A DNA stretch of 64,000 nucleotides, taken from NCBI GenBank assembly GCA_037441085.1, contig JBBISV010000003.1:695-64694 (forward strand), given 5' to 3'. Origin of the DNA: Gammaproteobacteria bacterium. GTDB taxonomy: Bacteria > Pseudomonadota > Gammaproteobacteria > Steroidobacterales > Steroidobacteraceae. Below are positions 36,800 through 58,959 of the stretch, piece by piece; positions within the stretch are counted from its first letter, which is position 1, and each line of letters opens with the position of its first letter. A program made the translations under genes and the position numbers. The notes below the pieces were generated by a model, which ran no database searches, was not told the origin of the DNA, and was given only the letters and a program-made list of their open reading frames with translations.

Positions 36800-36821
36800 G
36801 AACTAGCGCAGCACGCCGGCG

Positions 36822-38471: not shown

Positions 38472-38635
38472 CCGCCGACCGACAACTGCCCCATGTATCC
38501 CCCGGCTTGATTGATTTCGAGACTAACATACGGCCTGCCATCCGATGCCGGGCATTCGCGGCGCGTCGACGTCATCCGCTACACTACGCGCGGGCCAAAG
38601 CGCTTCTGCACGGTGTCGAGCCCGCGGCCGCCACG

Positions 38636-42231: not shown

Positions 42232-44250
42232 TCAGAGCAAGGCGAGACCTTCGAAGAGTGCGCGATGCCTCGTGTCCGCCCGATAGAAAACCGGCGGCTG
42301 CCCGATCGGAGCCTCGACGTCGCACTGCGCGCCGCCGGCGTAAGTCCGCCCGCTCCACGCATGCACCCAGTCGACTCCGGCGGGCAGGTAGGTGCTCCAA
42401 CGCGACACGCCCGCATCCAGAACCGGTGCGACCAGGAGATCCGCGCCGAACAGGTAGGAGGTCTGGCCCTCGTAGGCACGCGAATCCTGTTCGAAATGCA
42501 GAAACAGCGGCCGCTGCAAGGGCAGTCCCGTGGCGGCGGCCTCGGTGCACAACTCGGCGAGATACGGAGCCAAATGACGATAGACCCTGGTCATCCGCGC
42601 GAAATGACTGAGCACCCGCGGATCCTGGTCGACTTGCAGATTGTCGCCCGGCCGGTTGCCTTCGTGTGTACGCATCACCGCGGTGAACGCCGCCATCTCG
42701 GCCCACCGCATGATGAGTTCCGCGGTGCGGGTGTTGCCGAATAGGCTGGTGTAGCCGCCGATGTCGCTGTGGTGGTAGGCATTGCCCAACAGGCCGGAGG
42801 ATAGTGCCGCACAGATCACGGTCTGCAGGCCGTCGTGGCGGCTGAAGTCGACCGATTGATCGCCGGCCCACAACAGCGGGCAATGCGCCTGGACGCCGGT
42901 GAAGCCGGCGCGCATGAAGAACAGCGTCTCGCCGGTCCTGCCGCGGCGCGAAACCGCATCCGCATTGACCTTGGCCCAGATCACCGGCCACGCGTTGTGC
43001 GCCAACATGCCGTCGAGGCCGCTCCACAGGCGCACGTCGATCGGCAGATATTCGCCGAAATCGGCCATCCAGCCGGACAGGCCGAAGTCCAGCATGTTGC
43101 GGCCGATCACCCGCTCCTCGAACCATTCGGCCGCCGCGGAGTTCGTGAAGTCGACGATTCCGCAGTCGAATTCGCCGAAATCGAGGAGGTACGGTTCGTC
43201 GCGATCGATGCGCCTGGCGAGATAGCCGGCCGCGGCCGCCTCGGCGTACAGTTCGCCGTCGGTGCAAAGATACGGGTTCACGTAACCGAGGAAGCGGATG
43301 CCGCGCGCGGCCAGCTCCGGGATGCGCCGGTCCAGATCCGGATACCGCTGCCGGTTCCAACTCCAGTTCCAGAACAAGCGCCGGCCGAACGAAGTCTCGC
43401 GGACACCGACCCAGTCTTCGCACCACAGTCCGCTGATCGCGGCCCCGGCTTCGACATATCGTTCCAGCCGCTCGAGGCTGCGCGCGCCGTCCTTCAGGCC
43501 GATGATCGCGCCGGCGCGAACCCAGGCGGGCAATTCGGGTTGGCGGCCGAAGCGTGTCGACAGCGTACCCACGAGATCCACGAACCGATCGGCCCGCCAG
43601 ATCTCGACCTGCCGCGGGAGCGCCCAGACTTCGATCTCGTGAAATTCGCGATGCCTGAAATCGAAGACCGTGTAGGCGGTGCCTTCGACGTGGAGCGCGT
43701 AGTGTTCGGACGAGAGATAGGTCGGCTGGGGATAATTCGTGGTGTAGTAGTCACCGCCGCCGCCGTTGCGACAATCGGCCTCGAACGTGATGCGGGTGGA
43801 TTTGTCGCGTCCGACGCCGGGCTCCGAGGTCCACAGCGGGAACCGGCGTCCCCGCAGGTCGAAATACGACAACTGCTCGCCGCCGCCCCAGATTCTCTCG
43901 CCTTCGCCGGCCGCGATGCGCAGCCAGAAGCGGTTCAGCCCGGCCATGGCCTCCAGGAACACGAGCGCGAGACCGCCGCCGGATTCCTCCACCTCGATGC
44001 GCACCGCCGGCGGATCCGCCGGCGACGCGGCGAGCGCGATGCGCACGCGCGAGTCCGACCGGTCGACGGCCGAGTGCGTCAGCGGAATTCGCGCGATGAG
44101 ATAGTCGTCGATGCGAAAATTGCCGTGGTTCATGCGCACCGACGGCTCGCCGGCCCCAACGTACATGCACGGCTCGGAGCGTCGATGCCGCAGCACGGTC
44201 AAGCCCGCCACGACGACGTCGAATCCATCCGGGTGATCGATTACCGGCAT
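42232..44250 (-). CDS. yihQ: GH31 sulfoquinovosidase (YihQ-like)
   Basis: 672 aa, colinear with my recollection of E. coli YihQ (GEQLSYFDLRGRRFPLWTSEPGVGR, GDYYTT.YPQPT, FGRQPELP, NPY, FFMRAG, RTHEGNRPGDN, PIGQPPVFYR). Catalytic GWMADFGEY (Asp397) and WAGDQ (Asp464) are present. The sulfonate-pocket residues are GRRLFW (Arg291, Trp294; codons about 43369-43380) and HSDIGGY (Tyr500). Confidence 0.85.
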   Translation of the reverse strand: MPVIDHPDGFDVVVAGLTVLRHRRSEPCMYVGAGEPSVRMNHGNFRIDDYLIARIPLTHSAVDRSDSRVRIALAASPADPPAVRIEVEESGGGLALVFLEAMAGLNRFWLRIAAGEGERIWGGGEQLSYFDLRGRRFPLWTSEPGVGRDKSTRITFEADCRNGGGGDYYTTNYPQPTYLSSEHYALHVEGTAYTVFDFRHREFHEIEVWALPRQVEIWRADRFVDLVGTLSTRFGRQPELPAWVRAGAIIGLKDGARSLERLERYVEAGAAISGLWCEDWVGVRETSFGRRLFWNWSWNRQRYPDLDRRIPELAARGIRFLGYVNPYLCTDGELYAEAAAAGYLARRIDRDEPYLLDFGEFDCGIVDFTNSAAAEWFEERVIGRNMLDFGLSGWMADFGEYLPIDVRLWSGLDGMLAHNAWPVIWAKVNADAVSRRGRTGETLFFMRAGFTGVQAHCPLLWAGDQSVDFSRHDGLQTVICAALSSGLLGNAYHHSDIGGYTSLFGNTRTAELIMRWAEMAAFTAVMRTHEGNRPGDNLQVDQDPRVLSHFARMTRVYRHLAPYLAELCTEAAATGLPLQRPLFLHFEQDSRAYEGQTSYLFGADLLVAPVLDAGVSRWSTYLPAGVDWVHAWSGRTYAGGAQCDVEAPIGQPPVFYRADTRHRALFEGLALL

Positions 44251-44364: not shown

Positions 44365-46791
44365 TCAGTGCCCACCGCCGAACTTCGCATGGAACTCGAT
44401 CCCGTAGTAGCGATTCGCATCCCGCGGAACGAAATACTGGATGCTGCCGCCGGGCCCGCCGGTCTGGGCGAACGAAGCGTAGCTCGTGTTGCTGATGTTC
44501 TTCACGACCGCCGTCAGGGTCATGCGATGGTCGTGGTCGCTGAACGCCAGACTCGCGTTCCACATGCCATAGCCGTGCAGCCGCAGATAGGGATTCTCGC
44601 CTCCGTTGGGGCAGTACGAGGTCGTGCAGGTTGCGAAGTCCGCGTACTGCACGCTCTGGTAGCTGTAGTCGCTCGCGAGCGTCAGGTCGAAAGGCAGACC
44701 CGCCGACCAGGTGTAGTCGGTCCCGACGTTGCCCTTGAACTTCGGGGCGAACGGCAGGGCGCTGCCGCTCGCGGCAACGGCGTGCGGATTCGCCCCGGCC
44801 GGCGCATTGAAGTTCGTCACATGGGCATCCGCGTACGTGACGCCGCCGTTGACGTTCCAGGCGCTCGAGACGTGCGCGGCGCCGGTGAACTCGAAGCCCT
44901 GGCTCACGACCGATCCCGCATTGGTCAGCTGCGTGATCACCACGCCGTTCAGCACCGTCGGGCTGTTGGCCTGGAAGTTCTGGAATTCCTCGCGAAACAC
45001 GTCGGCGTTCAGATAGGCCTCGCCGCCGAGCAACGTCGACTTCAGGCCAAGTTCGTACGCGGTCGAGGTCTCGGGTGCGAGCGGCGCGGACTGCAGGTTG
45101 TTCTGGTTGAAGTAGACGTTGTAGGCGGGACCCTTGTAACCCCTGGCCCAGGTCAGGTACGTCATCTCATCGTGCGTCAGGTCCCACTGCACGCCGGCCT
45201 TGCCGGACAGGTTCGACCGCGACGTCGAACCGCTGCCCTGGAACGGCAGGCAATTCGGCTGAGGGGTGCAATTCGCCGCGATCACGCCGCCGCCGCCGAT
45301 GGGCGAGAGCGTGTAATTGTGGGATTGGGTCAGCTCGTCGTGCGTCTCGCGCAGACCGATGATCCCGCGGAACGTGTCGCTGAAGTGCAGCGTACCCTGG
45401 CCGTAGGCGGCCACGCTGACGGCGGTCGAACCGAAGGTCGCACTGGCCGCGGGCGAGATGTAGGTCGACGCACCCGGCTGGCAGGGCGCGAGCCCGGTCG
45501 CGTCCGGGGCGAGCGTCGTCGAGGTGCAGACCATGTCGTTGCGCTGGAAGTAGCGGTTCTGAACGTTGTGATAGTAGAAGAGTCCGCCGACGTACTCGAA
45601 GAACTGGTCGGCCGGCGAGGCGATGCGCACCTCCTCCGTCAGGGTCGAGGTCGTCTGCGGACCGATGTCGTGCACCATGCCGAACGCGCCGCCGACGTAG
45701 GCGGCCGTCACCGGCAGGTTGTCGCCCTCGCGGATCTCGTTGAACCACCAGTAACGGTAGGCGAGGATGTTGGTCAGCGTGTAGCCGCCATTCGACCAGT
45801 CCGTCTGCAGGGACAAGCCGCGTTCACGCTCGAGGCTCTGCGTCACCAGGCTGTCGTCGACGGTCCGCGTCTTGTCGCCCTGGTAGCTGCTGCCGGCCAG
45901 GATGCTCTGCAGTGCGCCCGCAATCGTCGCCGAGGTGCCGGGCGGCGTGCCGGGTGGCGTGCCGGTCACGAATGCACAGCAGTTGTCATTCGACTCGCGC
46001 CAGTCGCCGATGAACGTGAACTTCAGTGCGTCCGAGGCGTTCCACTTCCAAATCGAGCGGATGCCCCGGTGATCGTAGCCGTTGATCTTGCTGGTGCCGG
46101 AATTGACCGAGGGCTGGTACAGGTTCGTCAGGTTGCCGTCGTACCGCCCCATGAACACCGTGGTGCGGGTGAGGAAATTGTCGGACACCGGCAGATCCAC
46201 AGACGCGCGGGTACGCTGCTCGTTGCCCTCGAAGTAGGCGACATCGACGGCGGCATCGAAGGTTTTGCGCGGCATCACCGAGACGACGTTGATCACGCCG
46301 GCCGATGAATTCTTGCCGAAGAGCGTGCCCTGCGGACCCGGAATGACCTCCATGCGCGCGACGTCGAACAGGTCGCCGAACGCCTGGCCCGAGGTGCCCA
46401 TGACGACGCCGTCGAGCACGTAACCGACGCTCGGTTCCGCGCCCAGCGCGAAGTTGATCGTGCCGACGCCCCGCAGGAACAGGGAGGTGTTGAACGGAAT
46501 GTCGCCTTTGTGGAAGGTGACGCCCGGGACCTGGTTCAGCAAACCTTCCATGTTGATCGCGGCGCTGCGTTCGATTTGTTCGCCGGTGTAAACCGCGACG
46601 GCCGCCGGCACCTCCTGCAGGCGTTCGGCGCGCTTCTGCGCCGTGACGACGATCTCGCCGAGCTGCCCGGTGTCGGCCGCCGGGGTGGCGGCCTGGCCCG
46701 ATTGGGCGATCGCGCCGCCGGATGTCATCAAGCCCGCGCCCGCGATTGCGGCGACGGCGATCGTACGAAGTTTCAAGAGAACCTCAGCCAT
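44365..46791 (-). CDS. TonB-dependent receptor
   Basis: 808 aa from ATG 46791 (MAEVLLKLRTIAVAAIAGAGLMTSGGAIAQ), with plug motifs LGEIVVTAQKRAERLQEVPAAVAVY and MEVIPGPQGTLFGKNSSAG and a long barrel. Confidence 0.9.
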   Translation of the reverse strand: MAEVLLKLRTIAVAAIAGAGLMTSGGAIAQSGQAATPAADTGQLGEIVVTAQKRAERLQEVPAAVAVYTGEQIERSAAINMEGLLNQVPGVTFHKGDIPFNTSLFLRGVGTINFALGAEPSVGYVLDGVVMGTSGQAFGDLFDVARMEVIPGPQGTLFGKNSSAGVINVVSVMPRKTFDAAVDVAYFEGNEQRTRASVDLPVSDNFLTRTTVFMGRYDGNLTNLYQPSVNSGTSKINGYDHRGIRSIWKWNASDALKFTFIGDWRESNDNCCAFVTGTPPGTPPGTSATIAGALQSILAGSSYQGDKTRTVDDSLVTQSLERERGLSLQTDWSNGGYTLTNILAYRYWWFNEIREGDNLPVTAAYVGGAFGMVHDIGPQTTSTLTEEVRIASPADQFFEYVGGLFYYHNVQNRYFQRNDMVCTSTTLAPDATGLAPCQPGASTYISPAASATFGSTAVSVAAYGQGTLHFSDTFRGIIGLRETHDELTQSHNYTLSPIGGGGVIAANCTPQPNCLPFQGSGSTSRSNLSGKAGVQWDLTHDEMTYLTWARGYKGPAYNVYFNQNNLQSAPLAPETSTAYELGLKSTLLGGEAYLNADVFREEFQNFQANSPTVLNGVVITQLTNAGSVVSQGFEFTGAAHVSSAWNVNGGVTYADAHVTNFNAPAGANPHAVAASGSALPFAPKFKGNVGTDYTWSAGLPFDLTLASDYSYQSVQYADFATCTTSYCPNGGENPYLRLHGYGMWNASLAFSDHDHRMTLTAVVKNISNTSYASFAQTGGPGGSIQYFVPRDANRYYGIEFHAKFGGGH

Positions 46792-46910
46792 GACTCCCCC
46801 TTCTGAATTGGCCAATCCGCTGCGCGTTCGTGTAGCTTGCGAACCACACAGGGCTCGTGCTGACGGCATTTCTATGGTGGCGAACATAGCATGGATATTA
46901 TTAGTGATAC

Positions 46911-46928
46911 AACTCTTATATCAGAGTT
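46911..46928. promoter_or_regulatory. inverted repeat AACTCT-TATATC-AGAGTT in the receptor/MFS divergent promoter region (candidate GntR operator)
   Basis: Perfect 6-bp arms inside an AT-rich patch (46891-46935) of an otherwise GC-rich 244-bp intergenic region. It shares TCTTATATC and AGAGTTA with the 55480-55536 region. Confidence 0.35.
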
Positions 46929-47035: not shown

Positions 47036-48370
47036 TTGAACTTCACGCATCTGCCTGACCAGGACAATCGGCCGGACGCGGCCCGCACGGAGGATCCCGT
47101 GGCCGCGTCCGGCCGGAACGGCGCGCCGGGCTGGGTGCGATGGATGTTTCTCGCGCTGATCGTGTCGGCGAACATGATCAATTATGTCGACCGGGAAATC
47201 ATCGCCCTGCTGAAACCGCTGCTCGAAACGCGGTTCCACTGGAGCGACATGGACTACGGTCACGTCGTATCCGCGTTTCAATTATCGGCCGTGGTCGCCT
47301 ACATGGGCGCGGGCTGGTTCATCGACCGCGTCGGGTTGCGCTTCGGTTACCCGATCGCCGTGGCCGCCTGGAGCGCCGTCGCGATGGCGCATTCCGCGGC
47401 GCGTTCCGTGATTGCGTTCGTGGGATTGCGGTCCCTGCTCGGCGCGACGGAGGCGGCCCAGACGCCGGCGGCGGTCAAGACCATCGCCCATTGGTTCTCG
47501 ACGCGCGAACGCGCGCTTGCGCTCGGATTCATGAACACCGGCTCGAACCTCGGCCCGATCGTCACGCCGCTGATCGTGCCGCCGATCGTGCTCGCGTTTG
47601 GATGGCGCGCCGCCTTCCTGATCACCGGCGGACTCGGTTTCGTCTGGCTGATCGCCTGGTTCGCCGCCTATGCCGCCCGGCCGTCCGATCCGCGCGAACG
47701 GTCGTCGACGAGCCCCGCGCCCGCGCTCATCCCGAAGGCCCCGGGGCTCCGATGGACCCGTCTGCTTGCCAGCCGGCGTGTCTGGGCGGTTGCCGGCGCG
47801 AAATTGCTCACCGACCCGGTCTGGTGGTTTTTGTTGTTCTGGCTGCCGGACTTCATGCATCGCCGATACGGCCTGAACCTGCGCACGTTCGGCGTGCCGC
47901 TCGCCGCGATCTACGTGCTCGCCTCGGTCGGCGCGCTCGGCGGCGGCGTGCTGCCCGCCCGCATGCTGGCCCGCGGATCGAGCCTGAATGCGGCGCGCAA
48001 AACGACGCTGCTGATCTGCGCGATCGCGGTGACCGCGCTGCCCCTGGTCTTTCGCGTGGACAGCTACTGGTACGCGGTCCTCATCATCGGGCTGGCGCTC
48101 GCGGCTCACCAGGGATTCTCGACCAACGTGTTCGCGCTCGCGGCGGACATGTTCCCCGACGAGTCGGTCGGAACGGTGGTCGGAATCGGTGCATTGTTCG
48201 GCAACCTCGGCGGACTCGCGATCCTCGAATTCACCGGCTGGCAGGTTTCGCGGTCCGGCGGCTACTGGCCGATCTTCGCGTATTGCGCGGTCGCGTACCT
48301 GGCGGCGCTCGCATTGATCCACGCGTTGGTGCCGCGCATAGTCACGGTGCACGATCAAGCCGCGTCCTGA
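47036..48370 (+). CDS. MFS transporter, anion:cation symporter (ExuT/hexuronate-like) family
   Basis: 444 aa from TTG 47036, preceded by GGAGGGGGAGGG. It has 12 predicted TMs and the family-typical INYVDREIIALLKP and WFSTRERALALGF motifs. Internal starts around 47143 are possible. Confidence 0.85.
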   Translation: MNFTHLPDQDNRPDAARTEDPVAASGRNGAPGWVRWMFLALIVSANMINYVDREIIALLKPLLETRFHWSDMDYGHVVSAFQLSAVVAYMGAGWFIDRVGLRFGYPIAVAAWSAVAMAHSAARSVIAFVGLRSLLGATEAAQTPAAVKTIAHWFSTRERALALGFMNTGSNLGPIVTPLIVPPIVLAFGWRAAFLITGGLGFVWLIAWFAAYAARPSDPRERSSTSPAPALIPKAPGLRWTRLLASRRVWAVAGAKLLTDPVWWFLLFWLPDFMHRRYGLNLRTFGVPLAAIYVLASVGALGGGVLPARMLARGSSLNAARKTTLLICAIAVTALPLVFRVDSYWYAVLIIGLALAAHQGFSTNVFALAADMFPDESVGTVVGIGALFGNLGGLAILEFTGWQVSRSGGYWPIFAYCAVAYLAALALIHALVPRIVTVHDQAAS

Positions 48371-48396: not shown

Positions 48397-49530
48397 GTGC
48401 CAGACCATTCGACCAGCCGCGCGTCACGATTCGCGGCTTTCGGCGCGATCGCGGTGCTGTCGGCGGGCGCGGTCGCCGCACCGGCGCAACCGGCGGATCG
48501 ACCGGCGATACCGGAGTCGAACAGCAGTTTCCTCGACGCCGCGGGCACCGCCCACGTGACCAGGGTCGTGCCGATCCCGACGACGATCAGCGCCGAGGCC
48601 CGGGCCTTCCTCGCGCGCAAGCCACCGAACCTCGGCGCCATGACGCTCGCCGAGCGGCGCCGGCAGACCGACTTCTGGCAGGCCGCGCGCGCCGCGCGCT
48701 TCGAGGCGAGGTATCCGGTGCGCGTCAGCGAGCGCACGATGGGCGGGGTGCCGGTGAGGATCGTCTCGCCGTTGCGCATTCCGGCGGAGAATCGCGGCCG
48801 GGTCCTGATCAACCTGCACGGAGGCGGCTTCGACTCCGATTCCGGATCGCTGACCGAAACCGTGCCGATCGCGAACCTCACTCGGACCGAGGTCGTCGCG
48901 GTGCTGTACCGGCTGCAGCCGGAACACCCCTTCCCCGCCCAAATCGACGACGCCATCGCGGTCTACCGTCGGCTGCTCGAGCGCTACCAACCGCGGCACA
49001 TCTGCATCTACGGAACTTCCGCCGGCGCCATTCTGACTCCGCAGGTCGCCGTCCGGCTCCGCCAACTCGGCCTGCCACTGCCCGGCTGCCTCGGAGTCTT
49101 CTCCGGTGTCGGCGATTTCAGCCGGCGGGGCGACTCCCAGTCGATCTTCGGCCTGTTCGGCCTGTCGGGACCGCTCGGACTGCCGCGGGATCCGCCGCGC
49201 GCCGCCGGTGCCGCCGGTGCCGCCGGTGCCGCGCAGCCGGCGCCCGTGAACCTGAAGGATCCTCTGCGTTCGCCGCTGTACGCGGATCTGCACGGCTTCC
49301 CGCCGACGCTGTTCGTCTCGAGCGAGCGGGACATGCTGCTCAGCGGGACGACGATCCTGCACAGGGCGTTCCTCCGCGCCGGAGTCGATGCGCGCCTCGT
49401 CGTATTCGAAGGACTGCCGCACGCGTTCTGGAACCATCCGGGCCTTCCGGAAACGAACGAGGCGGATGAAATCATGGCCGCGTTCTTCGATCGGCACCTC
49501 GGCAACCATTCAGGCTCGACGCGGCCGTGA
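48397..49530 (+). CDS. secreted alpha/beta hydrolase fold-3 esterase/lipase (HSL-like)
   Basis: 377 aa from GTG 48397, with AAGGAAG 7 nt upstream. It has a signal-like N-terminus RFAAFGAIAVLSAGAVAAPAQP, the oxyanion motif LHGGGF, the nucleophile elbow GTSAGA and a C-terminal HAF His region. Confidence 0.8.
   Translation: MPDHSTSRASRFAAFGAIAVLSAGAVAAPAQPADRPAIPESNSSFLDAAGTAHVTRVVPIPTTISAEARAFLARKPPNLGAMTLAERRRQTDFWQAARAARFEARYPVRVSERTMGGVPVRIVSPLRIPAENRGRVLINLHGGGFDSDSGSLTETVPIANLTRTEVVAVLYRLQPEHPFPAQIDDAIAVYRRLLERYQPRHICIYGTSAGAILTPQVAVRLRQLGLPLPGCLGVFSGVGDFSRRGDSQSIFGLFGLSGPLGLPRDPPRAAGAAGAAGAAQPAPVNLKDPLRSPLYADLHGFPPTLFVSSERDMLLSGTTILHRAFLRAGVDARLVVFEGLPHAFWNHPGLPETNEADEIMAAFFDRHLGNHSGSTRP
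49201..49227 (+). repeat. in-frame 9-bp tandem repeat (GCCGCCGGT x3) inside the esterase gene
   Basis: Read directly: gccgccggt gccgccggt gccgccggt followed by gccgc. It encodes AAGAAGAAG in a loop-like region. Confidence 0.9.
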
Positions 49531-49594: not shown

Positions 49595-50314
49595 GTGACA
49601 GACACCCCCGGCTATCGGCCGTTGTACCGCCAGGTCTACGACATCCTGGTGAATCGCGTGGTTCAGGGCGCTTGGCGGCCCGGCGAATCGCTGCCGAGCG
49701 AACAGAGCCTCGCGAAGGAGCTCGGCGTGAGCCAGGGCACGGTGCGCAAGGTGCTCGACGCGCTGACCGCCGAGAAGCTGCTCGAACGGCGACAGGGGAA
49801 GGGCACCTATATCGCCGAGCACACCCAGGAACGCGCCTTGTTCCGCTTCTTCCGCATTTCCCGGCCCGGCGGCGAGCGCCTGAAGCCCGAGCGCACGAGC
49901 GAGGCGGTCCGGGTGCGCGCGGCGCGCGCCGCCGAACGCGCCAAGCTCGACCTGGAGCGCGACGCCCGGGTCGTCGAGATCACGCGGACGCGCCTGATCA
50001 ACGGCGATCCGGCGCTGCACGAGGTCATCATCGTGCCGGCGCAGCTGTTCCCAGGCATCGAGAAGCGCGCGGCGCTGCCGAACACCTTGTATTCCTTGTA
50101 CCAGACCGACTACGGGATCAACATCGTGTCGGCGCACGAGGAGGTGCACGCCGAACTCGCGACCGCCGTCGACCACCGGATCCTCGGGGTCGCGGTCGCG
50201 AGCCCGATCCTCGTGATCGACCGCCTCGCGCTGTCGCTGCAGGATCGCAAGGTCGAGTGGCGCGTCAGCCGCCTGAAGTCCGACAACCTGGTCTACGCGG
50301 TGACGCTGGCCTGA
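49595..50314 (+). CDS. GntR family transcriptional regulator, HutC subfamily (UTRA effector domain)
   Basis: 239 aa from GTG 49595, with GGAGAGG 7 nt upstream. The wHTH is LPSEQSLAKELGVSQGTVRKVLDALTAEKLLERRQGKGTYI. The C-terminal fold looks UTRA-like. Confidence 0.85.
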   Translation: MTDTPGYRPLYRQVYDILVNRVVQGAWRPGESLPSEQSLAKELGVSQGTVRKVLDALTAEKLLERRQGKGTYIAEHTQERALFRFFRISRPGGERLKPERTSEAVRVRAARAAERAKLDLERDARVVEITRTRLINGDPALHEVIIVPAQLFPGIEKRAALPNTLYSLYQTDYGINIVSAHEEVHAELATAVDHRILGVAVASPILVIDRLALSLQDRKVEWRVSRLKSDNLVYAVTLA

Positions 50315-50318
50315 CCGC

Positions 50319-51122
<804 letters not shown>

Positions 51123-52004
51123 TCAGACCTTGGGGTCGAAACTCTGCGACGGCAGGCCCGCGACGCCGGCGTCGAGCGCGTACAGGCCGCCGCCGGTGCC
51201 GTCCGCGTGCCGCGCGGTGGTGACATAGAGGGTCGCGAGATCCGGCCCGCCGAACGCCGGCATCGTCGGCGAGCGCGCCGGAATCGGATACTCGGCCATC
51301 AGGCCGCCGTCCGGGTCGTAGCGACACACCCGCCCGCCTTCGTAGAGCGCGCTCCAGTAACAGCCCTCGACATCGACCGCGGCGCCGTCGGGCCGGCCGC
51401 GATCGGTCGCGGTCGGCTCCAGCCGCACGAACACACGGCGGTTCGAGATCCCGCCCGTCGTCACGTCGTAGTCGTAACGGTAGACGACGAAGCGCGGCGT
51501 GTCGGCGTGATACAGGCTGCGGCCGTCGGGCGAGAAGGCGAGCCCGTTCGAGGTCATCAAGCCCTCGGCGAGGCGCGTCAGGCCGCGGCGATCGAAGCGA
51601 TACAGACCCGCGCGGCCACCCGCCTTCGGCTCGTCGATCGTACCGACCAACAGCCGGCCGACCGGGTCGACGCGCCCGTCATTGAACCGGCTCACGGCCG
51701 TCTCTTCGGGGTTGCCGGCGAGCATCACATCCTTCTGACCCGACGCGCGCAGGCGCCAGATTCCCGAACGCAGCGCGCCTATGAATCCACCGTCGACGGC
51801 CGGCGCGATGCAGCCGATCGCCTCGTCTAGTTCGTGCGCGATGCAGGTCCCACGCACCGGATCATGGCGGAACCAGCGGCCGGCGGGCACATCGACGAAC
51901 AACAGTTCGCCGGACTCACGCATCCAGACCGGCGACTCGCCGAGCGCGCAGCGGCAATCGAGCACGAGCCGGAACGCGCGCGTTCGCGCCGTCGCCCCGC
52001 TCAT
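51123..52004 (-). CDS. SMP-30/gluconolactonase/LRE family lactonase; candidate 6-deoxy-6-sulfogluconolactonase
   Basis: 293 aa with six-bladed propeller-type repeats (GESPVW, NDGRVDP, SNGLAFSPDG, PDGAAVD). Its start overlaps the epimerase stop (ATGA). Confidence 0.9.
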   Translation of the reverse strand: MSGATARTRAFRLVLDCRCALGESPVWMRESGELLFVDVPAGRWFRHDPVRGTCIAHELDEAIGCIAPAVDGGFIGALRSGIWRLRASGQKDVMLAGNPEETAVSRFNDGRVDPVGRLLVGTIDEPKAGGRAGLYRFDRRGLTRLAEGLMTSNGLAFSPDGRSLYHADTPRFVVYRYDYDVTTGGISNRRVFVRLEPTATDRGRPDGAAVDVEGCYWSALYEGGRVCRYDPDGGLMAEYPIPARSPTMPAFGGPDLATLYVTTARHADGTGGGLYALDAGVAGLPSQSFDPKV

Positions 52005-52891
52005 CGGCCGCGTCCCAGGCCGATCGTCACGGTGCCGCCGATGCGCCCGCCGGGAGGCACGAGCGCCATCCGGCCCGCCGCGAGATCCGGACGATTGATC
52101 GCGTCGGCGATGTGGCTGACCGGCTCGACGCCGAAAAAGTCCCGCCCCGGCGGCGTGAATACCCGCAGTACCGGGAAATCCGCGCTCGCCGTGAGCTCGA
52201 CCTCGAGTCCGCAGGCATCGACGATGCCGGCCGCGCCGGACCAGCCGATGAAGTCATTGTCCAGCGCGGCCGCGCCGATCGGACGGCCGGACGCATGGTC
52301 CCAGGATGTGCCGGGATCGAGTTCGCCGGGAAGATCGTCCGCATCGTTGCACCAGCATCCATCCGCCGCGAAGCGCAGCACTTCGCCGCCATTGCGCGGA
52401 AACAAAGGGTGCAGCCCGAGGCCGAGAGGCACCGCGACCGGTTCCAGATTCCTCGCCTCGAGCGCGACACGCAGCCCCCGCGGCGTGAGCGAGATCCTCT
52501 CGGTCGCATCGAACGCGAACGGCCAGTCGAGCGCCTCCTCGCCCTGAGGCCGATGCGCGAGCCGCAGCTCGCAGCCGTCCTCGCCGGCGCGCTCGACCCG
52601 CCAGGCCCTGCGCCAGCCCACCCCGTGCAAGGGGTGCGCGCCGTGCGGGAAATTGCCGCGCAACACGTGCTCACGCCCCGCCGCGCGAAATCGCCCGCGC
52701 GCGATCCGGTTCGCGTATGGCACGAGCGGATAGCAGGCGGTCCCGCGCACTTCGCATCGCTGCACCGCCTGCTCGGGCGTGGGCCGCAGAATCGCGCGGC
52801 CACGCCATGCAAGATTGAGGAGCGAGCCGCCGATCCAGGGCGCGACCTCCGCGCTCCAATCGCCGCAACCCAGTGCGATGCGCGCCGCCAT
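52001..52891 (-). CDS. aldose 1-epimerase family protein; candidate sulfoquinovose mutarotase
   Basis: 296 aa with family-like blocks PLVPYANRI, HPLHGVGW, LGLHPLF and FGVEPVSH. Confidence 0.85.
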   Translation of the reverse strand: MAARIALGCGDWSAEVAPWIGGSLLNLAWRGRAILRPTPEQAVQRCEVRGTACYPLVPYANRIARGRFRAAGREHVLRGNFPHGAHPLHGVGWRRAWRVERAGEDGCELRLAHRPQGEEALDWPFAFDATERISLTPRGLRVALEARNLEPVAVPLGLGLHPLFPRNGGEVLRFAADGCWCNDADDLPGELDPGTSWDHASGRPIGAAALDNDFIGWSGAAGIVDACGLEVELTASADFPVLRVFTPPGRDFFGVEPVSHIADAINRPDLAAGRMALVPPGGRIGGTVTIGLGRGR

Positions 52892-52897
52892 CGCGGC

Positions 52898-53695
52898 TTA
52901 GTAAGCGGCGACGGGGCCGGCGCCCGCGGCCCGGCCGCGGATCGCGCCGATCCAGTCGCCGGCGCGGCCCGTCAACATCGCCAGGTCCGAGCCGACCGCG
53001 ACCCAGTCGTAGCCGTAACCGAGAAACCGCGCGACCATGTCCGGATTGCCGCCGACGATGCCGATCGGCTTGCCCGCCGCGTGCGCATCCCGCGCCGCCT
53101 TCGCGATCAGCGCCTGTACCTCGGGATGTGCCACCTCCCCGATGCGCCCCATCGCCGCGGACAGATCCCCGGGACCCACGAACAGGGAATCGACGCCCGG
53201 CACCGCCGCGATGCGGGGCAGGCGTTCGATCGCCTCCGGAGTCTCGAGCTGGATCACCACCGCGATCCCCTCGTTCGCGCTGCGCAGGTAGTCCGGGCTG
53301 CGCCCGTAGCGGGAGGCGCGATGGATCGCCGCGACGCCGCGCACGCCGGCCGGCGGATAACGCGTATAAGAGACCGCGGCGGCGGCCTCCTCGGCGTTCT
53401 GCACGAACGGGAACATCACGCTGCGCGCACCCGAGTCGAGCACGCGCTTGACGACGACCTGGTCGTTCCAGGGGATCCGCACGACCGACTCGCACGGCGT
53501 GCCGGCAATCGCCCGCAGCAGTCCGATCGTCTCGGCCGCGTCGATCGGACTGTGCTCCATGTCGACGACCAGAAAATCGAAACCGCAGAAGCCGAGCGCC
53601 TCGGCGACGGCCGGCGCGGCCGACATCAACCAGGTGCCGAGCATCGGCGCCTCGCGCGGACCGGACAGGCCCGTCTTGAATGCATTCGTTTCCAT
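52898..53695 (-). CDS. HpcH/HpaI family class II aldolase; candidate 2-keto-3-deoxy-6-sulfogluconate aldolase
   Basis: 265 aa from ATG 53695, with AGGAG 7 nt upstream. Family blocks are FDFLVVDMEHSPID, VRIPWND and GVDSLFVGPGDLS. The listed 491-aa ORF extends through the dehydratase 3' end and was trimmed. Confidence 0.85.
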   Translation of the reverse strand: METNAFKTGLSGPREAPMLGTWLMSAAPAVAEALGFCGFDFLVVDMEHSPIDAAETIGLLRAIAGTPCESVVRIPWNDQVVVKRVLDSGARSVMFPFVQNAEEAAAAVSYTRYPPAGVRGVAAIHRASRYGRSPDYLRSANEGIAVVIQLETPEAIERLPRIAAVPGVDSLFVGPGDLSAAMGRIGEVAHPEVQALIAKAARDAHAAGKPIGIVGGNPDMVARFLGYGYDWVAVGSDLAMLTGRAGDWIGAIRGRAAGAGPVAAY

Positions 53696-53712: not shown

Positions 53713-55479
53713 TCAATAGATCGGCGGCTCCGGCGTGGGCGCGCGGCCGGCGAGGAAGTCGAAATCGCAGCCCTGCGGCGCCTGCCCGACGTGCGCGCGG
53801 TACAGTGCGGCATAGGAGCGCAGATACGGCGACGCCGGCGCATGCCAGTCGGCGCGGCGGCGGTTCCACTCCTCCTCCCCAACCAAGGCGTCGAGCCGTC
53901 CCGCGGCGACGTCGAGCCGGACGCGGTCGCCGGTGCGAAGCAATGCGAGCGGCCCGCCGATCGCCGCCTCCGGCGCCGCATGCACGATGCAGCACCCGTA
54001 ATGGGTGCCGCTCATGCGCGCATCGGAGATGCGCACCATGTCGCGCACGCCGCGCGCGAGCAGCTTCTTCGGGATCGGCAGGTTCCCCCACTCCGGCATG
54101 CCCGGGGCCCCGACCGGACCGGCATTGCGCAGCACGAGAACCGTGTTCTCGTCGACGTCGAGGTCCGGATCGTCGATCCGGGCCGACAGCGTGGCGTGGT
54201 CGTCGAAAACCAGAGCGCGGCCCTCGTGACGCATCAGCCGCGGGTCCGCGGCGCTCGATTTCAGCACCGCGCCGTCGGGACACAGGTTGCCGCGCAGCAG
54301 CGCGAGCGTCGCGCCGCGCGACAACGGCACGACCGGATCGTCGAGACCGCGAATCACCGCATCGTCCCAGCACTTCGCCTCGCGCAGCGCCTCGCCGAGA
54401 CTGCGGCCCTCGACGGTCAACGCGCCGAGGTCGAGCCGGTCCCCGAGCTTGGCGAGCAGCGCCGGAAGCCCCCCGGCGAAGAAAAAGTCCTCCATCAACC
54501 GGTCACCCGAGGGGAACAGGTTCGCGAGCACCGGGGTGAGCCGTGCGGCGGCCGCCAAATCATCGAGGCCGAGCGCGACGCCCGCGCGCCCCGCCAGCGC
54601 GATCAGGTGGATCGCCGCATTGGTGGAGCCGCCGAGCGCCATGTACGCGACGACGCCGTTGCGGAACGCCGCCGCGGTCGCGATGCGATCGATCGTGAGC
54701 CCTTCGGCAACCATCGCGACGATGCGTTCGCCGCTGGCCGAGGCCATGCGCACATGGGCCGAGTCGACCGCGGGAATGGACGATGCACCGGTCAGACAGA
54801 GCCCCATCGCGTCGATGATCGAGGTCATCGTCGAGGCCGTGCCCATCGTGTTGCAGGTGCCGATCGAGCGCGTCATCCGCGATTCGAGGTCGATCCAGTC
54901 GTCGGCGGTGATGTTGCCGGCCCGCAGCTCGTCCCAGTATTTCTTGGTGTGCGTGCCGGCCCCGGTCTTCACGCCGCGCCATTGGCCGTTCGCCATGGGC
55001 CCCGCGGGACAAAAGATCGTCGGCAGGCCCATGCTGATCGCCCCCATCAGCAAACCGGGCGTGGACTTGTCACAACCGCCGAGCAGCACGGCGCCGTCGA
55101 TCGGATGTGACCGCAGCAACTCCTCGGTCTCCATCGCGAGGAAGTTGCGGTACAGCATCGTCGACGGCTTCACCATGACCTCGCCGACCGAAAGCGCGGG
55201 AAGTTCGACCGGATAGCCGCCCGCGAGCAGCACGCCGCGCTTGACCGCCTCGGCGCGCTGGCGCAGGTGGATGTGGCACGGGCTCATCTCGCTCCACGTG
55301 TTCACGATCGCGATCACCGGCCGGCCGAGGAACTCCTCGCGCCTGAGCCCCATCTGCTGGGTGCGCTGCCGGTGCGCGAATCCGCGCATGTCCGCGCTCT
55401 CATACCAGCGGGCGCTGCGCAACGGGCGGGCGCCGGCGGCGGCGGGGGTGTTTTTTGAATTGCTACTTGAATTTGTCAT
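53713..55479 (-). CDS. IlvD/Edd family sugar-acid dehydratase; candidate 6-deoxy-6-sulfogluconate dehydratase
   Basis: 588 aa from ATG 55479 (MTNSSSNSKN), with family motifs GGCDKSTPGLLMGA, TCNTMGTA and ISDARMSGT. Confidence 0.9.
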   Translation of the reverse strand: MTNSSSNSKNTPAAAGARPLRSARWYESADMRGFAHRQRTQQMGLRREEFLGRPVIAIVNTWSEMSPCHIHLRQRAEAVKRGVLLAGGYPVELPALSVGEVMVKPSTMLYRNFLAMETEELLRSHPIDGAVLLGGCDKSTPGLLMGAISMGLPTIFCPAGPMANGQWRGVKTGAGTHTKKYWDELRAGNITADDWIDLESRMTRSIGTCNTMGTASTMTSIIDAMGLCLTGASSIPAVDSAHVRMASASGERIVAMVAEGLTIDRIATAAAFRNGVVAYMALGGSTNAAIHLIALAGRAGVALGLDDLAAAARLTPVLANLFPSGDRLMEDFFFAGGLPALLAKLGDRLDLGALTVEGRSLGEALREAKCWDDAVIRGLDDPVVPLSRGATLALLRGNLCPDGAVLKSSAADPRLMRHEGRALVFDDHATLSARIDDPDLDVDENTVLVLRNAGPVGAPGMPEWGNLPIPKKLLARGVRDMVRISDARMSGTHYGCCIVHAAPEAAIGGPLALLRTGDRVRLDVAAGRLDALVGEEEWNRRRADWHAPASPYLRSYAALYRAHVGQAPQGCDFDFLAGRAPTPEPPIY

Positions 55480-55536
55480 CTTGATCTGTAATCTTATATC
55501 TAATACAAGAGTTACCAAAAGCCATTTGGAACCTGC
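55480..55536. promoter_or_regulatory. 57-bp AT-rich divergent promoter/operator region between the dehydratase and suyA-like genes
   Basis: cttgatctGTAATCTTatatctaatacAAGAGTTACcaaaagcc contains the imperfect inverted repeat GTAA-TCTT / AAGAGTTAC (55488-55515). It also contains the TCTTATATC and AGAGTTA words shared with 46911-46929. Confidence 0.35.
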
Positions 55537-55827
55537 ATGCCAAACATACCCCAATTGTTGATACACGGCCGCCGCGACAACGTCGGCGTCGTCGTCGTCG
55601 AAGGCCTGACCGCCGGGACCGACATGTTCTGCGTCGTGACCGAGGACAACAGCGAGCTGCGGGCGCGCTGCAACCAGGACGTGCCCATCGGCCACAAGGT
55701 GGCCTTGAAGGACCTGGCGGTGGGCGACACCGTGATCAAGTACGGCGAGGACATCGGTCGCGTCGTCGCCCCCATCGCCAAGGGCGACCATGTCCACACC
55801 CACAATCTGAAAACGAAGCGCTGGTAA
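55537..55827 (+). CDS. suyA: SAF-domain small subunit of a split UxaA-family lyase; (2R)-sulfolactate sulfo-lyase subunit alpha candidate
   Basis: 96 aa corresponding to the N-terminal SAF domain of altronate dehydratase-like proteins ([23 protein letters not shown]). It is encoded separately from the large subunit, as in SuyAB. Confidence 0.75.
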
Positions 55828-55831
55828 AGCC

Positions 55832-57007
55832 ATGAACCTTTCGAAACGCACCATCTGGGGCTATCGCCGCGAAAACGGCCGTGTCGGCGTGCGCAACCAC
55901 GTCGCGATCCTGCCCCTGGACGACATCTCCAACGCCGCCTGCGAGGCCGTCGCCGCGCACATCCAAGGCACCATCGCGCTGCCGCACGCCTATGGGCGGC
56001 TCCAGTTCGGAGAGGACCTGGAACTGCATTTCCGCACCATGATCGGCACCGGCGCCAACCCGAACGTGGCCGCCTGCATCGTGATCGGCATCGAGCCGCA
56101 CTGGACCGAGAAGGTCGTCGCCGGCATCGCGAAAACCGGCAAGCCCGTAGCGGGCTTCTGGATCGAGGGCAACGGCGACATCGCGACCGTCGCCGCCGCG
56201 GCGCGCAAGGCCAAGGAATTCGTGCACCTGGCCTCCGAACAGGTGCGCGTCGAGTGCCCGCTGACCGACTTGTGGGTTGCCGCCAAATGCGGCGAGAGCG
56301 ACACCACGACGGGGCTCGCCTCCTGCCCGACCGTCGGCAACATGTATGACAAGCTCGTGCCGCAAGGCCTGTACGGATGTTTCGGAGAGACCTCCGAGCT
56401 CACCGGGGCTGAGCATCTCGCGGCGGCGCGCGCGGCCACGCCCGAGATCAGCGCGAAGTTCATGAAGACGTGGACGGCCTATCAGAACGATGTCATCGAG
56501 GCGCACAAGACCTCGGACCTCTCGGACAGCCAGCCCACCAAGGGGAACATCGCCGGCGGGCTGACCACGATCGAGGAGAAGGCGCTCGGCAACCTCGAAA
56601 AGATCGGAAAGAAGATCAAGTACATCGACGTGCTGGGACCGGCGGAAGAGCCGGCACGCGGCGCCGGGCTGTATTTCATGGACACCTCGTCCGCGGCGGC
56701 CGAATGTTGCACGCTTCAAGCCGCCGCCGGCTACGTCGTGCACGTGTTCCCGACCGGACAGGGCAACGTGATCGGCAACCCGATCATGCCGGTCATCAAG
56801 CTGAGCGGCAATCCGCGCACGGTGCGACTGATGAGCGAACACATCGACGTCGACGTCTCCGGCATCATCCGGCGCGAGATCACGATCGACCAAGCCGGCG
56901 ACCGCCTGATCGACTGCATCGTGCGCACGGCGAACGGCCGGTTAACGTCCGCCGAGGCGCTCGGCCATCGCGAGTTCGTGATGACCAAGCTGTACCGCAG
57001 CGCCTGA
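55832..57007 (+). CDS. suyB: UxaA-family large subunit; (2R)-sulfolactate sulfo-lyase subunit beta candidate
   Basis: 391 aa, starting 4 nt after the small-subunit stop. It begins with the [19 protein letters not shown] block typical of the UxaA/GarD C-terminal domain and carries Cys-containing motifs (CGESDTT). Confidence 0.8.
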
Positions 57008-57028
57008 GGGGCTGATGGCGGCACGGCC

Positions 57029-58036
57029 ATGATTCGCATGACCGCGGCGCAGGCCGAGGCGCTCGTCGCACGGGCGCTCGCGGCCTGCGGCACCTCGGCG
57101 TCGAACGCCGAGTCCACCGCCCGGGCCCTGGTCGCGGCCGAAATCGACGGCCAGGCGGGTCACGGCCTCTCGCGCGTGCCGGGTTATGCGGCACAGGTGA
57201 AGGCCGGCAAGGTGAACGGCAGCGCCGTTCCGACCGCGCTGCGCAGCCGCCCCGCCAGTCTTCGAATCGACGCGCGCGGCGGATTCGCCTATCCGGCGCT
57301 CGACCTCGCGATCGAACAGCTCCCGGCGATCGCCCGTGAAACCGGCGTCGCGGCGGCCGGCATACACGCGTCGCATCACATCGGTCAGGCCGGCCGCAGC
57401 GTCGAGCGTCTCGCCGATCGCGGACTGGTCGCGCTGATCGTATCCAACACGCCGCGCGCGATGGCATTCCACGGGGGCACCAAGCCCATGATGGGCACCA
57501 ATCCGCTCGCCTTTGCCGCGCCGATCGCCGGCCGCGCGGCGCTGGTGATCGACCTGTCGCTGTCGCTGGTCGCACGCAGCAAGATCGTCGCCGCCCAGAA
57601 GGCGGGCCGCAAGATCCCGACCGACTGGGCGACCGACGCGAACGGCGCGGCCACCGACGATCCGTCGGCCGCGCTCGCCGGCGCGCTGTTGCCCGCGGGC
57701 GGCTCCAAAGGCGCCGCACTCGCGCTGATGGTCGAAGTGCTCTGCGCGGCGCTCGCCGGCGGCCGCTTCGGCTGGGAGGCGAGTTCTTTTCTGGACGATC
57801 GCGGCGATTCGCCCGACGTCGGCCAGATGCTGGTCGCGCTCGATCCGGACGCGTTCGCCGGACCCGGCTACGGCGCGCGCATGGCGGAGCTCGTTGCGGC
57901 GGTCTGCGCCGAGCCCGGCGTGCGCCTTCCCGGCGACCGGCGTCTCGAACAGCGCGCCCGCGCGCGCATCGACGGGTTTGCGATCGCGCCGGAACTGCAC
58001 GCACAGATCGAAGCACTGGCGGAGAGCGGGCGATGA
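57029..58036 (+). CDS. Ldh_2 (malate/L-lactate/sulfolactate dehydrogenase) family oxidoreductase; (R)-sulfolactate dehydrogenase ComC-like candidate
   Basis: 335 aa with family blocks GHGLSRVPGY, HIGQAG, MGTNPLAFAAP and GSKGAALALMVEVL. The specific substrate is not deducible from sequence alone. Confidence 0.85.
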   Translation: MIRMTAAQAEALVARALAACGTSASNAESTARALVAAEIDGQAGHGLSRVPGYAAQVKAGKVNGSAVPTALRSRPASLRIDARGGFAYPALDLAIEQLPAIARETGVAAAGIHASHHIGQAGRSVERLADRGLVALIVSNTPRAMAFHGGTKPMMGTNPLAFAAPIAGRAALVIDLSLSLVARSKIVAAQKAGRKIPTDWATDANGAATDDPSAALAGALLPAGGSKGAALALMVEVLCAALAGGRFGWEASSFLDDRGDSPDVGQMLVALDPDAFAGPGYGARMAELVAAVCAEPGVRLPGDRRLEQRARARIDGFAIAPELHAQIEALAESGR

Positions 58037-58959
58037 GTGAGATCGTGATCAGTGAATTCATGGATCAGGCGGCGATCGACCGCTCGTTCGCGGGCCGGGA
58101 CGTGCTCTATGACCCGAAGCTCGTCGACCAGCCCGAACGGCTGCTCGCCGCCGTCGCGGACTGCCGCGCGCTGATCGTGCGCAACCGCACGCAGGTGCGC
58201 GGCGCGCTGCTCGCGCAGGCCGCCCGTCTGCAAGTCGTCGGTCGGCTGGGCGTCGGCCTCGACAATATCGACGTCGAAGCCTGCGCGGCGCGCGCGATCA
58301 AGGTGTATCCCGCGACCGGCGCGAACGATCTCGCGGTCGCCGAGTACGTCGTGACCGCGGCGCTGATGTTGCTCCGGCGCGCCTGGTTCGCGACCGAGCG
58401 CGTGGCCGCCGGCACCTGGCCGCGAATGGACCTGATCGGCCGCGAAGGCGCAGGCAAGCGGCTCGGGCTGGTCGGCTTCGGCGCGATCGCCCGACTGACC
58501 GCGCACAAGGCCGCGGCGCTCGACTTCCAGGTGGCGGCATACGATCCCTTCCTGCCCGCGGAACACGCCGCCTGGGCCGGCGTCGAGCGCCTCGCGCTCG
58601 AGGAATTGCTCGGATCCTGCGACGTGATCAGCCTGCATACCCCGCTGACCGCGCAAACGCGGCGCATGATCGATGCCGCGGCGCTCGCGCGGATGAAACC
58701 GACCGCGATCCTGATCAATGCCGCGCGCGGCGGCATCGTCGATGAAGCCGCGCTGATTGCGGCGTTGAAGTCGGGCGGACTCGCCGGCGCGGCGCTCGAC
58801 GTGTTCGAGAACGAGCCGCTCGACGCGGCGACGGGGGCCGCATTTGGCGGCCTGCCGAACTTGATCCTGACGCCCCACATCGCCGGCGTCACCGAGGAAT
58901 CCAACGTCCGGGTCAGCGACGTGACGGCGCGCGCGGTGCGCGCCGCGCTCGACGGCTAG
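58033..58959 (+). CDS. D-isomer-specific 2-hydroxyacid dehydrogenase family protein (SerA-like, short form)
   Basis: 308 aa with the NAD motif GLVGFGAIARLTA and the catalytic region LINAARGGIVDE ... LTPHIAG. Its start overlaps the upstream stop (ATGA). Confidence 0.85.
   Translation: MSEIVISEFMDQAAIDRSFAGRDVLYDPKLVDQPERLLAAVADCRALIVRNRTQVRGALLAQAARLQVVGRLGVGLDNIDVEACAARAIKVYPATGANDLAVAEYVVTAALMLLRRAWFATERVAAGTWPRMDLIGREGAGKRLGLVGFGAIARLTAHKAAALDFQVAAYDPFLPAEHAAWAGVERLALEELLGSCDVISLHTPLTAQTRRMIDAAALARMKPTAILINAARGGIVDEAALIAALKSGGLAGAALDVFENEPLDAATGAAFGGLPNLILTPHIAGVTEESNVRVSDVTARAVRAALDG

Follow-up and report, generated by a model that had tools for sequence, protein, structure and literature searches.

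The locus at positions 55537-58959 of the 64,000-nucleotide stretch analyzed here (the window: positions 695 to 64,694 of contig JBBISV010000003.1, assembly GCA_037441085.1, from a gammaproteobacterium of the family Steroidobacteraceae) raises two questions: whether its four genes, which a first-pass annotation had read as a SuyAB-like split lyase and two 2-hydroxyacid dehydrogenases forming a desulfonation operon, indeed serve to cleave sulfolactate (SL), and where that SL would come from. Sequence comparison supports the desulfonation reading apart from one of its premises, through the placement of the large lyase subunit in the SuyB clade, its altered cysteine signature, and the families of the two dehydrogenases. 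We consider it likely that the four genes constitute a sulfolactate desulfonation module, which belongs to one sulfoquinovose (SQ) locus as its downstream half.

The four open reading frames (ORFs) all lie on the + strand. The first, suyA (55537-55827; 96 aa), encodes a predicted SAF-type small subunit of sulfolactate sulfo-lyase, although its Pfam match to SAF is marginal (21.5 bits; NCBIfam galactarate-dehydratase N-terminus, E-value 2e-10). The second, suyB (55832-57007; 391 aa), encodes the predicted large catalytic subunit (PF04295, E-value 3e-33; PF20629, E-value 4e-81). They are followed by a comC-like gene of the Ldh_2 family (57029-58036; 335 aa; PF02615, E-value 7e-93), whose product is a proposed (R)-sulfolactate dehydrogenase or sulfopyruvate reductase, and by an slcC-like gene of the D-2-hydroxyacid dehydrogenase family (58033-58959; 308 aa; PF00389, E-value 5e-23; PF02826, E-value 7e-56), whose product is a proposed (S)-sulfolactate dehydrogenase. 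The gaps between them are 4, 21 and -4 nt: the TAA stop of suyA (55825-55827) is separated by a 4-nt spacer from the ATG of suyB (55832), the spacer between suyB and the comC-like gene is 21 nt, and the comC-like stop overlaps the slcC-like start in an ATGA (58033-58036). The co-directional ORFs, the short gap and the overlap were thus described correctly at the outset, and the domain families hold by Pfam. The codon-position GC pattern of the four ORFs (0.85-0.90 at the third position, GC3, vs 0.36-0.57 at the second, GC2) identifies them as real genes. Scans revealed no intrinsic terminators beyond chance inside or after the unit and no match to the sigma-70 promoter consensus above chance, so that we infer co-transcription of the four genes as an operon from their spacing and conserved order.

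Is the lyase SuyAB? The first-pass annotation took the split into two chains as the hallmark of this enzyme, and here it was wrong: a heteromeric L-fuconate dehydratase has been reported (PMC6336799), and many split UxaA pairs occur that show no more than 41% identity to the window SuyB. Because such other split UxaA enzymes exist, the two-gene layout of a SAF protein and a PF04295/PF20629 protein is by itself non-discriminating. The sequence relationships of the large subunit nevertheless support its identification as SuyB. TBLASTN searches of plasmids with SuyB gave a bimodal result, with one group at 59-76% identity (Paracoccus, Sinorhizobium mexicanum, Methylobacterium, Cupriavidus pinatubonensis and Rhodococcus) and all other matches at 41% or below. 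The window SuyB is 74% identical to its counterpart in Paracoccus (P. versutus), 68% to that in C. pinatubonensis and 75% to that in S. mexicanum, and the corresponding values for SuyA are 68%, 48% and 70%; for the first two SuyB references, the same-locus orthologs of P. versutus UW1 and C. pinatubonensis HN-2 were used rather than the sequences of NKNCYSA and JMP134. In Cupriavidus the matching locus has the order hpsN-hpsO-MFS-hpsP-suyA-suyB (MFS, major facilitator superfamily transporter), and in Paracoccus a GntR gene, suyA, suyB and a "sulfate exporter" gene stand near hps-type genes, a transhydrogenase and a sulfite oxidase; according to reviews, the Cupriavidus hps-suyAB and Paracoccus suyR-suyAB-suyZ loci are those in which SuyAB was defined. 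In a neighbor-joining tree with a Bacillus split pair from a fucose cluster, a Variovorax split pair, Haloferax, E. coli UxaA and E. coli GarD as outgroups, the window protein falls inside the SuyB clade, and the bipartition that unites SuyB with the Rhodococcus sequence has 100% bootstrap support. This phylogeny, proposed earlier as a check, groups the large subunit with SuyB and apart from the sugar-acid dehydratases.

The residues point in the same direction. Four cysteines are conserved across UxaA/GarD dehydratases except in sulfolactate sulfo-lyase (PMC6336799). In the window SuyB the four columns (positions 32, 56, 87 and 153) read I, R, I and C, so that three of the four cysteines are lost; all members of the SuyB clade show I or L, R, I and C, and E. 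coli UxaA, GarD and the Bacillus fucose-cluster enzyme show C in all four. A genome-collection scan with the window SuyB provided the 80 closest species-level genomes that carry a close SuyB (the 80-locus set used below), and a SuyA gene is paired with it in all 80. A query for proteins identical to the window SuyB found no existing entry. A search of solved structures with the window SuyB returned GarD as the sole match and no SuyAB structure, and NCBIfam contains no model for SuyA, SuyB or SlcC. The alternative that the split pair is a heteromeric sugar-acid dehydratase of the L-fuconate or pentonate type, in a non-phosphorylative pathway for ordinary sugars, draws on the existence of heteromeric UxaA-type L-fuconate dehydratases and on the Bacillus split pair, which sits in an obvious fucose cluster. 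The window protein, however, is only 39% identical to that fucose-cluster enzyme vs 74% to Paracoccus SuyB, it has lost three of the four dehydratase cysteines, and it lies outside the dehydratase groups in a fully supported SuyB clade. We therefore reject this candidate, which in our estimate retains hardly any probability, and regard the identification of the lyase as SuyAB as supported by these comparisons despite the mistaken premise.

One of the more distant split pairs deserves mention in its own right. Variovorax sp. PBL-E5 plasmid 3 (L091, 2738-8292) encodes a UxaA-type pair only 41% identical to SuyB, which also lacks three of the four dehydratase cysteines and keeps an Arg at the column of window position 56. 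It clusters with genes for a GntR regulator, a hydroxyacid dehydrogenase, a binding protein of the tripartite tricarboxylate transporter (TTT) type and an Ldh-family oxidoreductase, and looks like a parallel system of two dehydrogenases plus a lyase for SL or a related acid.

The second element of the proposed module is the pair of dehydrogenases, which may act together as a sulfolactate racemase via sulfopyruvate. The weakest link of the original argument was the family membership of SlcC, and this link has turned out to be sound: among the validated enzymes of Chromohalobacter salexigens, SlcC is a D-2-hydroxyacid dehydrogenase (PF00389+PF02826), ComC belongs to the Ldh_2 family (PF02615), as had been assumed, and SuyB carries PF20629+PF04295 (PMC12421959 Table S2), so that the Pfam families of genes 4, 3 and 2 of the window match those of the validated proteins exactly. 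The stereochemical argument is made in the literature in the same form: SQ-derived SL is the (S)-enantiomer vs the (R)-enantiomer for which SuyAB is specific. The window slcC-like and comC-like proteins are 61% and 54% identical, respectively, to S. mexicanum ORFs adjoining suyAB, and this strain is given as a carrier of SlcC and ComC homologs (PMC12421959 Table S6). Among the matches listed, slcC-like homologs at 73-83% identity bear the automatic name "(S)-sulfolactate dehydrogenase" from the Joint Genome Institute (JGI), based on KEGG Orthology (KO), and comC-like homologs at 66-77% bear the JGI name "(2R)-3-sulfolactate dehydrogenase (NADP+)"; the NCBI names on the latter, again among the matches listed, point the same way. 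The best solved relatives of the slcC-like protein are phosphoglycerate dehydrogenases.

Several observations weigh against the reading as a whole, and those on the dehydrogenases belong here. The comC-like protein scores 189.5 bits against the NCBIfam equivalog for L-sulfolactate dehydrogenase (NF040650), below the cut-off of 500, and its best solved relative is a piperideine-2-carboxylate reductase (215 bits vs 134 bits for archaeal ComC, chain 2X06, deposited as "L-sulfolactate dehydrogenase" and presumably from M. jannaschii). Because it falls below that cut-off and nearer to the piperideine-2-carboxylate reductase, we refer to its function as ComC-like and do not assign it to NF040650. 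For both dehydrogenases, the proposed orthology draws on family membership, synteny, automatically assigned KO names and an identity of 54-61% with homologs that are themselves predicted.

These points lend some weight to the possibility that SuyAB is correctly identified but that the dehydrogenases form no racemase, serving instead other sources of sulfopyruvate, redox balancing or other 2-oxo and 2-hydroxy acids, or that SuyAB takes (S)-SL directly; among solved proteins, the Ldh_2 protein does resemble an imine reductase more closely than archaeal ComC. Gene neighborhoods speak on both sides. Of the 80 loci, 13 have the Ldh_2 gene without its partner and 18 lack both dehydrogenase genes, which means that SuyAB works without the pair in some organisms. 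However, ComC-like and SlcC-like genes both occur within 10 kb of suyAB in 46 of the 80 and nearly always stand side by side, in one order or the other (SuyB-SlcC-ComC in 22 loci; SuyB-ComC-SlcC, the order of the window, in 17), which is the pattern expected of a two-enzyme unit, and the loci without the pair include those of the 2,3-dihydroxypropane-1-sulfonate (DHPS) type, where HpsN yields (R)-SL directly. The identity of the Pfam families with those of the validated pair, and the mismatch between (S)-SL from SQ and the (R)-specificity of characterized SuyAB enzymes, argue further for a racemase, and we regard its absence as unlikely.

Where would the SL come from? Judged by its neighbors, the four-gene operon is the downstream end of an SQ locus, since it is flanked by genes of the sulfo-Entner-Doudoroff (sulfo-ED) families, a short-chain dehydrogenase/reductase (SDR) resembling SQ 1-dehydrogenase, a glycoside hydrolase resembling sulfoquinovosidase, and uptake genes. 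Divergently from suyA, on the - strand, lie genes for an IlvD/Edd-family dehydratase (53713-55479; PF00920+PF24877, the SedC family; a proposed sulfogluconate dehydratase), an HpcH/HpaI aldolase (52898-53689; PF03328, the SedD family), which would split 2-keto-3,6-dideoxy-6-sulfogluconate (KDSG) into pyruvate and (S)-sulfolactaldehyde, an aldose 1-epimerase (52001-52891), proposed from PF01263 and synteny to be an SQ mutarotase, an SMP-30/gluconolactonase (51123-52004; PF08450, the SedB family; a proposed sulfogluconolactone lactonase), and the SDR, a predicted sulfoquinovose 1-dehydrogenase (50319-51083). These divergent genes represent the Pfam families of the SedC, SedD, SedB and SedA proteins of the Pseudomonas putida sulfo-ED pathway plus a mutarotase. 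The best solved match of the SDR is 9gwu, "Sulfoquinovose 1-dehydrogenase" (301 bits, 70 above the next), which is probably the P. putida enzyme of PMC12133307. Further upstream, on the - strand, lies a gene for a predicted GH31 sulfoquinovosidase (42232-44250), whose scores are 975 bits for 5OHY/5OHS (deposition name "Alpha-glucosidase yihQ") and 706 bits for 5AED (deposition name "Sulfoquinovosidase"); we take 5OHY/5OHS to be the Agrobacterium (A. tumefaciens) sulfoquinovosidase. The window protein keeps the residues aligned to R283, W286, Y491 and D455, of which the first three presumably form the sulfonate-binding triad and the last is presumably the acid/base.

The divergent genes also contain what remains in favor of the sugar-acid alternative. 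The best NCBIfam match of the dehydratase is L-arabinonate dehydratase, at 876 bits close to the cut-off of 882, and this counts among the points against our reading; the SDR in turn resembles xylose dehydrogenase in NCBIfam. On the other side, the flanking GH31 protein and the SDR match solved SQ-specific enzymes best. The score of the dehydratase just below the model cut-off (876 vs 882 bits) also illustrates that sulfo-ED dehydratases could easily be misnamed pentonate dehydratases by automatic pipelines. Sulfofucose was considered as the substrate instead of SQ and rejected: the dehydratase is of the wrong family (PF00920), no enolase-superfamily sulfogalactonate dehydratase (PF13378/PF02746) was found, and the glycosidase is predicted to be SQ-specific.

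The remaining genes of the SQ locus are candidates for uptake and for processing of the substrate. A TonB-dependent receptor with plug and beta-barrel domains (44365-46887, - strand) is a proposed outer-membrane uptake protein and has counterparts at the matching place in L084 (1-2103) and L086 (1-928). The SQ importers described in the literature are of the ABC (ATP-binding cassette) or MFS type, and the presence of this receptor in the SQ loci of the window and its relatives suggests TonB-dependent outer-membrane uptake of SQ glycosides. The MFS transporter (47036-48370, + strand; PF07690), whose gene is conserved in L004, L015 and L019, is proposed to import SQ or SQ glycosides across the inner membrane. 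Between it and the regulator gene discussed below lies a gene for an alpha/beta-hydrolase (48397-49530, + strand; Abhydrolase_3, PF07859), shared only with the closest relatives (L004, L085 and L086); its counterparts in the corresponding place of L004 and L086 show 89-93% identity, and its product, a candidate acyl esterase for sulfolipid, could remove acyl groups ahead of the sulfoquinovosidase. Just upstream of the SQ locus (34476-40051), the window encodes a sulfatase, an ABC transporter with a fused OpuAC-type binding domain and a TPR-sulfotransferase protein (TPR, tetratricopeptide repeat), which may reflect further organosulfur metabolism. In a 97% relative (L085, L086) a TPR-sulfotransferase gene stands directly 3' of slcC, so that this region has been rearranged.

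Are the two halves also connected at the level of regulation? The divergent promoter region between the dehydratase gene and suyA (55480-55536) is 57 bp long and AT-rich, and contains a block of ~28 nt (55483-55512) that is conserved in the suyA/dehydratase intergenic region of all loci with the tandem arrangement described below. Within this block lies a degenerate palindrome, TCTAATACAAGA (55499-55510), a candidate SuyR-type operator. The 12-bp palindrome TCTTATATAAGA, allowing one mismatch at most, occurs in the 200 bp that precede suyA in 54 of 83 SuyAB loci, which span Alpha- and Gammaproteobacteria and include those of Paracoccus and S. mexicanum; these 54 copies are part of 75 matches overall in 1.46 Mb. 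The 64-kb window contains just two matches with up to two mismatches, vs 0.06 expected: the one upstream of suyA and a second copy, TCTTATATCAGA (46914-46925), in the intergenic region from which the TonB receptor and MFS genes diverge. The remaining tandem loci likewise have a further copy, 6-8.7 kb upstream of suyA. It must be added to the points on the other side of the balance that the suyA-upstream copy of the window carries two mismatches. A literature search on the SuyR operator found no description of such a palindrome.

The locus encodes its own candidate for the cognate regulator, a SuyR-like protein of the GntR/HutC type with a UTRA domain (49595-50314, + strand; 239 aa; PF00392+PF07702), whose gene begins with a GTG at 49595 preceded by a Shine-Dalgarno sequence. 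It shares 43% identity with the GntR protein whose gene diverges from suyAB in P. versutus. The palindrome is a candidate operator of SuyR-type GntR regulators, and its second copy would extend a SuyR-type regulon to the SQ genes. The sulfo-ED half, the suy half and the uptake genes are thus probably controlled jointly by the SuyR-like protein of the locus.

The arrangement is not confined to the window. The full sulfo-ED set stands divergent beside suyAB-comC-slcC in nine of the 80 genomes, from uncultured Gammaproteobacteria of the Steroidobacteraceae type, Caulobacteraceae and one metagenome-assembled genome (MAG) of the Rhodobacteraceae, and a cultured strain, Caulobacter sp. KR2-114 (GCA_049446115.1), has the tandem locus as well. 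The dehydratase gene (53713-55479 in the window) is conserved beside suyA in the tandem loci, with 70-95% identity of its product. In four tandem loci slcC is directly followed by a gene whose product, an aldehyde dehydrogenase of the GabD type, shows 58-66% identity to the E. coli protein (L009 9080-10510; L015, L019 and L020 ~13200-14650); by its family, it would supply in these relatives the step from sulfolactaldehyde to SL that joins both halves. In Caulobacter sp. KR2-114 a gene for an exporter of the PF03601 (SuyZ) type lies 3' of slcC (L084 13140-14261).

The window lacks both of these genes, which completes the list of points against our reading: an aldehyde dehydrogenase (PF00171) is absent from its 64 kb (a TBLASTN search with E. 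coli GabD gave a best E-value of 0.2), and so is SuyZ or any other sulfite exporter. The pathway is therefore incomplete within the 64 kb, and both functions must come from genes in other parts of the genome or from other proteins. The missing aldehyde dehydrogenase leaves the halves of the locus without a joining step, which would suit the view that the operon serves the uptake and degradation of exogenous SL, i.e. the role of a secondary degrader, with the sulfo-ED neighborhood being incidental; in accordance with this view, most SuyAB loci (about 70 of the 80) have no sulfo-ED genes nearby, and the literature calls the two functions rarely co-inherited. It does not explain, however, why the divergent layout recurs in nine of the 80 genomes and in a Caulobacter isolate, across Gamma- and Alphaproteobacteria, why a GabD-type gene is joined to the suy operon in four of the tandem loci, or why both divergent promoter regions of the SQ locus share the same palindrome. 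Moreover, the locus contains no TTT-type sulfolactate transporter, and because of this the substrate is presumably made in the cell from SQ. We consider the incidental neighborhood quite improbable, more so than the absence of a racemase, and retain the reading of the four genes as the desulfonating half of an SQ locus.

A separate observation concerns the history of the tandem locus. SuyB is 87-91% identical between the Caulobacteraceae and the Steroidobacteraceae-type Gammaproteobacteria (L009, L014 and L084 vs L005-L020 and the window), and the neighboring sulfo-ED proteins are 66-86% identical across the same Alpha/Gamma comparison. As these identities are far above the expectation for vertical descent between classes, they suggest lateral transfer of the whole tandem locus.

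Taken together, these data establish the anatomy of the genes, their family and clade membership, the conserved synteny and the conserved cis-element, and lead to the following scheme, in which the enzymatic activities and stereospecificities are predicted from homology. The TonB-dependent receptor and the MFS transporter would take up the substrate, and the GH31 sulfoquinovosidase would free SQ, which the mutarotase, SQ dehydrogenase, lactonase, IlvD/Edd-type dehydratase and HpcH aldolase could convert to pyruvate and (S)-sulfolactaldehyde. An aldehyde dehydrogenase encoded outside the window would oxidize the latter to (S)-SL, which would then enter the pathway of the four-gene operon, where the SlcC-like enzyme is proposed to oxidize it to 3-sulfopyruvate, the ComC-like enzyme to reduce sulfopyruvate to (R)-SL, and SuyA and SuyB, as the two subunits of a (2R)-sulfolactate sulfo-lyase, to cleave (R)-SL into pyruvate and sulfite. 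The two halves are transcribed divergently from the 57-bp region. That the locus and its relatives encode complete mineralization of SQ in one organism, with a sulfo-ED pathway fused to a racemase and lyase and united into one regulon by copying of the SuyR operator into the SQ-uptake promoter, seems to us somewhat better than an even bet.

How does this locus relate to known systems? The C. salexigens DSM 3043 cluster comprises SuyR, SlcHFG, SlcC, ComC and SuyAB (Denger & Cook 2010, cited in PMC12421959 and PMC9594981). The window shares with it the four enzyme families, the proposed logic of racemizing and then cleaving, and a GntR-type regulator, the likeness being judged by families rather than sequence identity, but has no TTT sulfolactate transporter. 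Orthologous SuyA and SuyB and a GntR-type regulator are likewise found in the Paracoccus suyR-suyAB-suyZ and C. pinatubonensis hpsN-hpsO-hpsP-suyAB loci, and Paracoccus has the same palindrome upstream of suyA. These loci, however, have no ComC/SlcC pair beside suyAB, are fed by cysteate or DHPS, and include the SuyZ exporter; the window possesses the pair and a proposed in-locus feed from sulfoglycolysis, and lacks SuyZ. The presence of the four-gene SlcC/ComC/SuyAB module in most Paracoccus genomes has been noted in reviews.

On the sulfoglycolytic side, P. putida SQ1 and Rhizobium leguminosarum SRDI565 use the same families of SQ dehydrogenase, lactonase, IlvD/Edd dehydratase, HpcH aldolase, mutarotase and sulfoquinovosidase. 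They excrete SL and carry a sulfolactaldehyde (SLA) dehydrogenase in their clusters, whereas the cluster of the window runs on into the desulfonation operon and has no aldehyde dehydrogenase within the window. Sulfoglycolysis physically joined to SuyAB is known from genome analysis in the "extended" sulfo-transaldolase (sulfo-TAL) clusters of Thermotogae and Chloroflexi listed in a 2022 review (PMC9594981), which differ in their transaldolase front end, occur in other phyla, and for which no SlcC/ComC pair is mentioned.

The closest parallel is P. wurundjeri strain Merri, in which ED-type sulfosugar genes (SDR, lactonase, dehydratase and HpcH aldolase) are clustered with suyA, suyB, slcC and comC, likewise without a classical sulfolactaldehyde dehydrogenase, and in which full mineralization of sulfofucose to sulfite has been demonstrated (PMC12421959). 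The P. wurundjeri cluster has its own features: the sulfofucose substrate, an enolase-superfamily dehydratase (PF13378/PF02746), ABC uptake, no sulfoquinovosidase, and slcC followed by comC. The window differs in having an IlvD/Edd dehydratase (PF00920) as in the sulfo-ED pathway for SQ, the GH31 enzyme, the TonB receptor, the MFS transporter, and comC followed by slcC. Sulfoglycolysis and biomineralization in one bacterium were called "unusual" (PMC12421959), and in the literature that we searched we found no report of an SQ sulfo-ED pathway joined to SlcC/ComC/SuyAB.

The four-gene module itself is already known from C. salexigens, Paracoccus and P. wurundjeri and adds nothing new to enzymology; what is new here is modest, namely the SQ-specific tandem arrangement, the shared cis-element and the occurrence in a culturable strain. 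According to reviews, sulfoglycolysis and desulfonation of C3-sulfonates are rarely co-inherited, and complete mineralization normally needs two organisms. If our reading is true, the locus would be for SQ what the P. wurundjeri pathway is for sulfofucose, and would depart from the two-tier view, which assigns sulfoglycolysis and desulfonation to different organisms. With a sulfo-ED pathway directly connected to SlcC/ComC/SuyAB, and probably under joint regulation with it, a single cell could obtain all six carbons as pyruvate and set the sulfur free as sulfite, so that one bacterium could probably do the job usually split between two. As the arrangement is carried by a cultured Caulobacter as well as by MAG lineages from soil and freshwater, this idea is directly testable.

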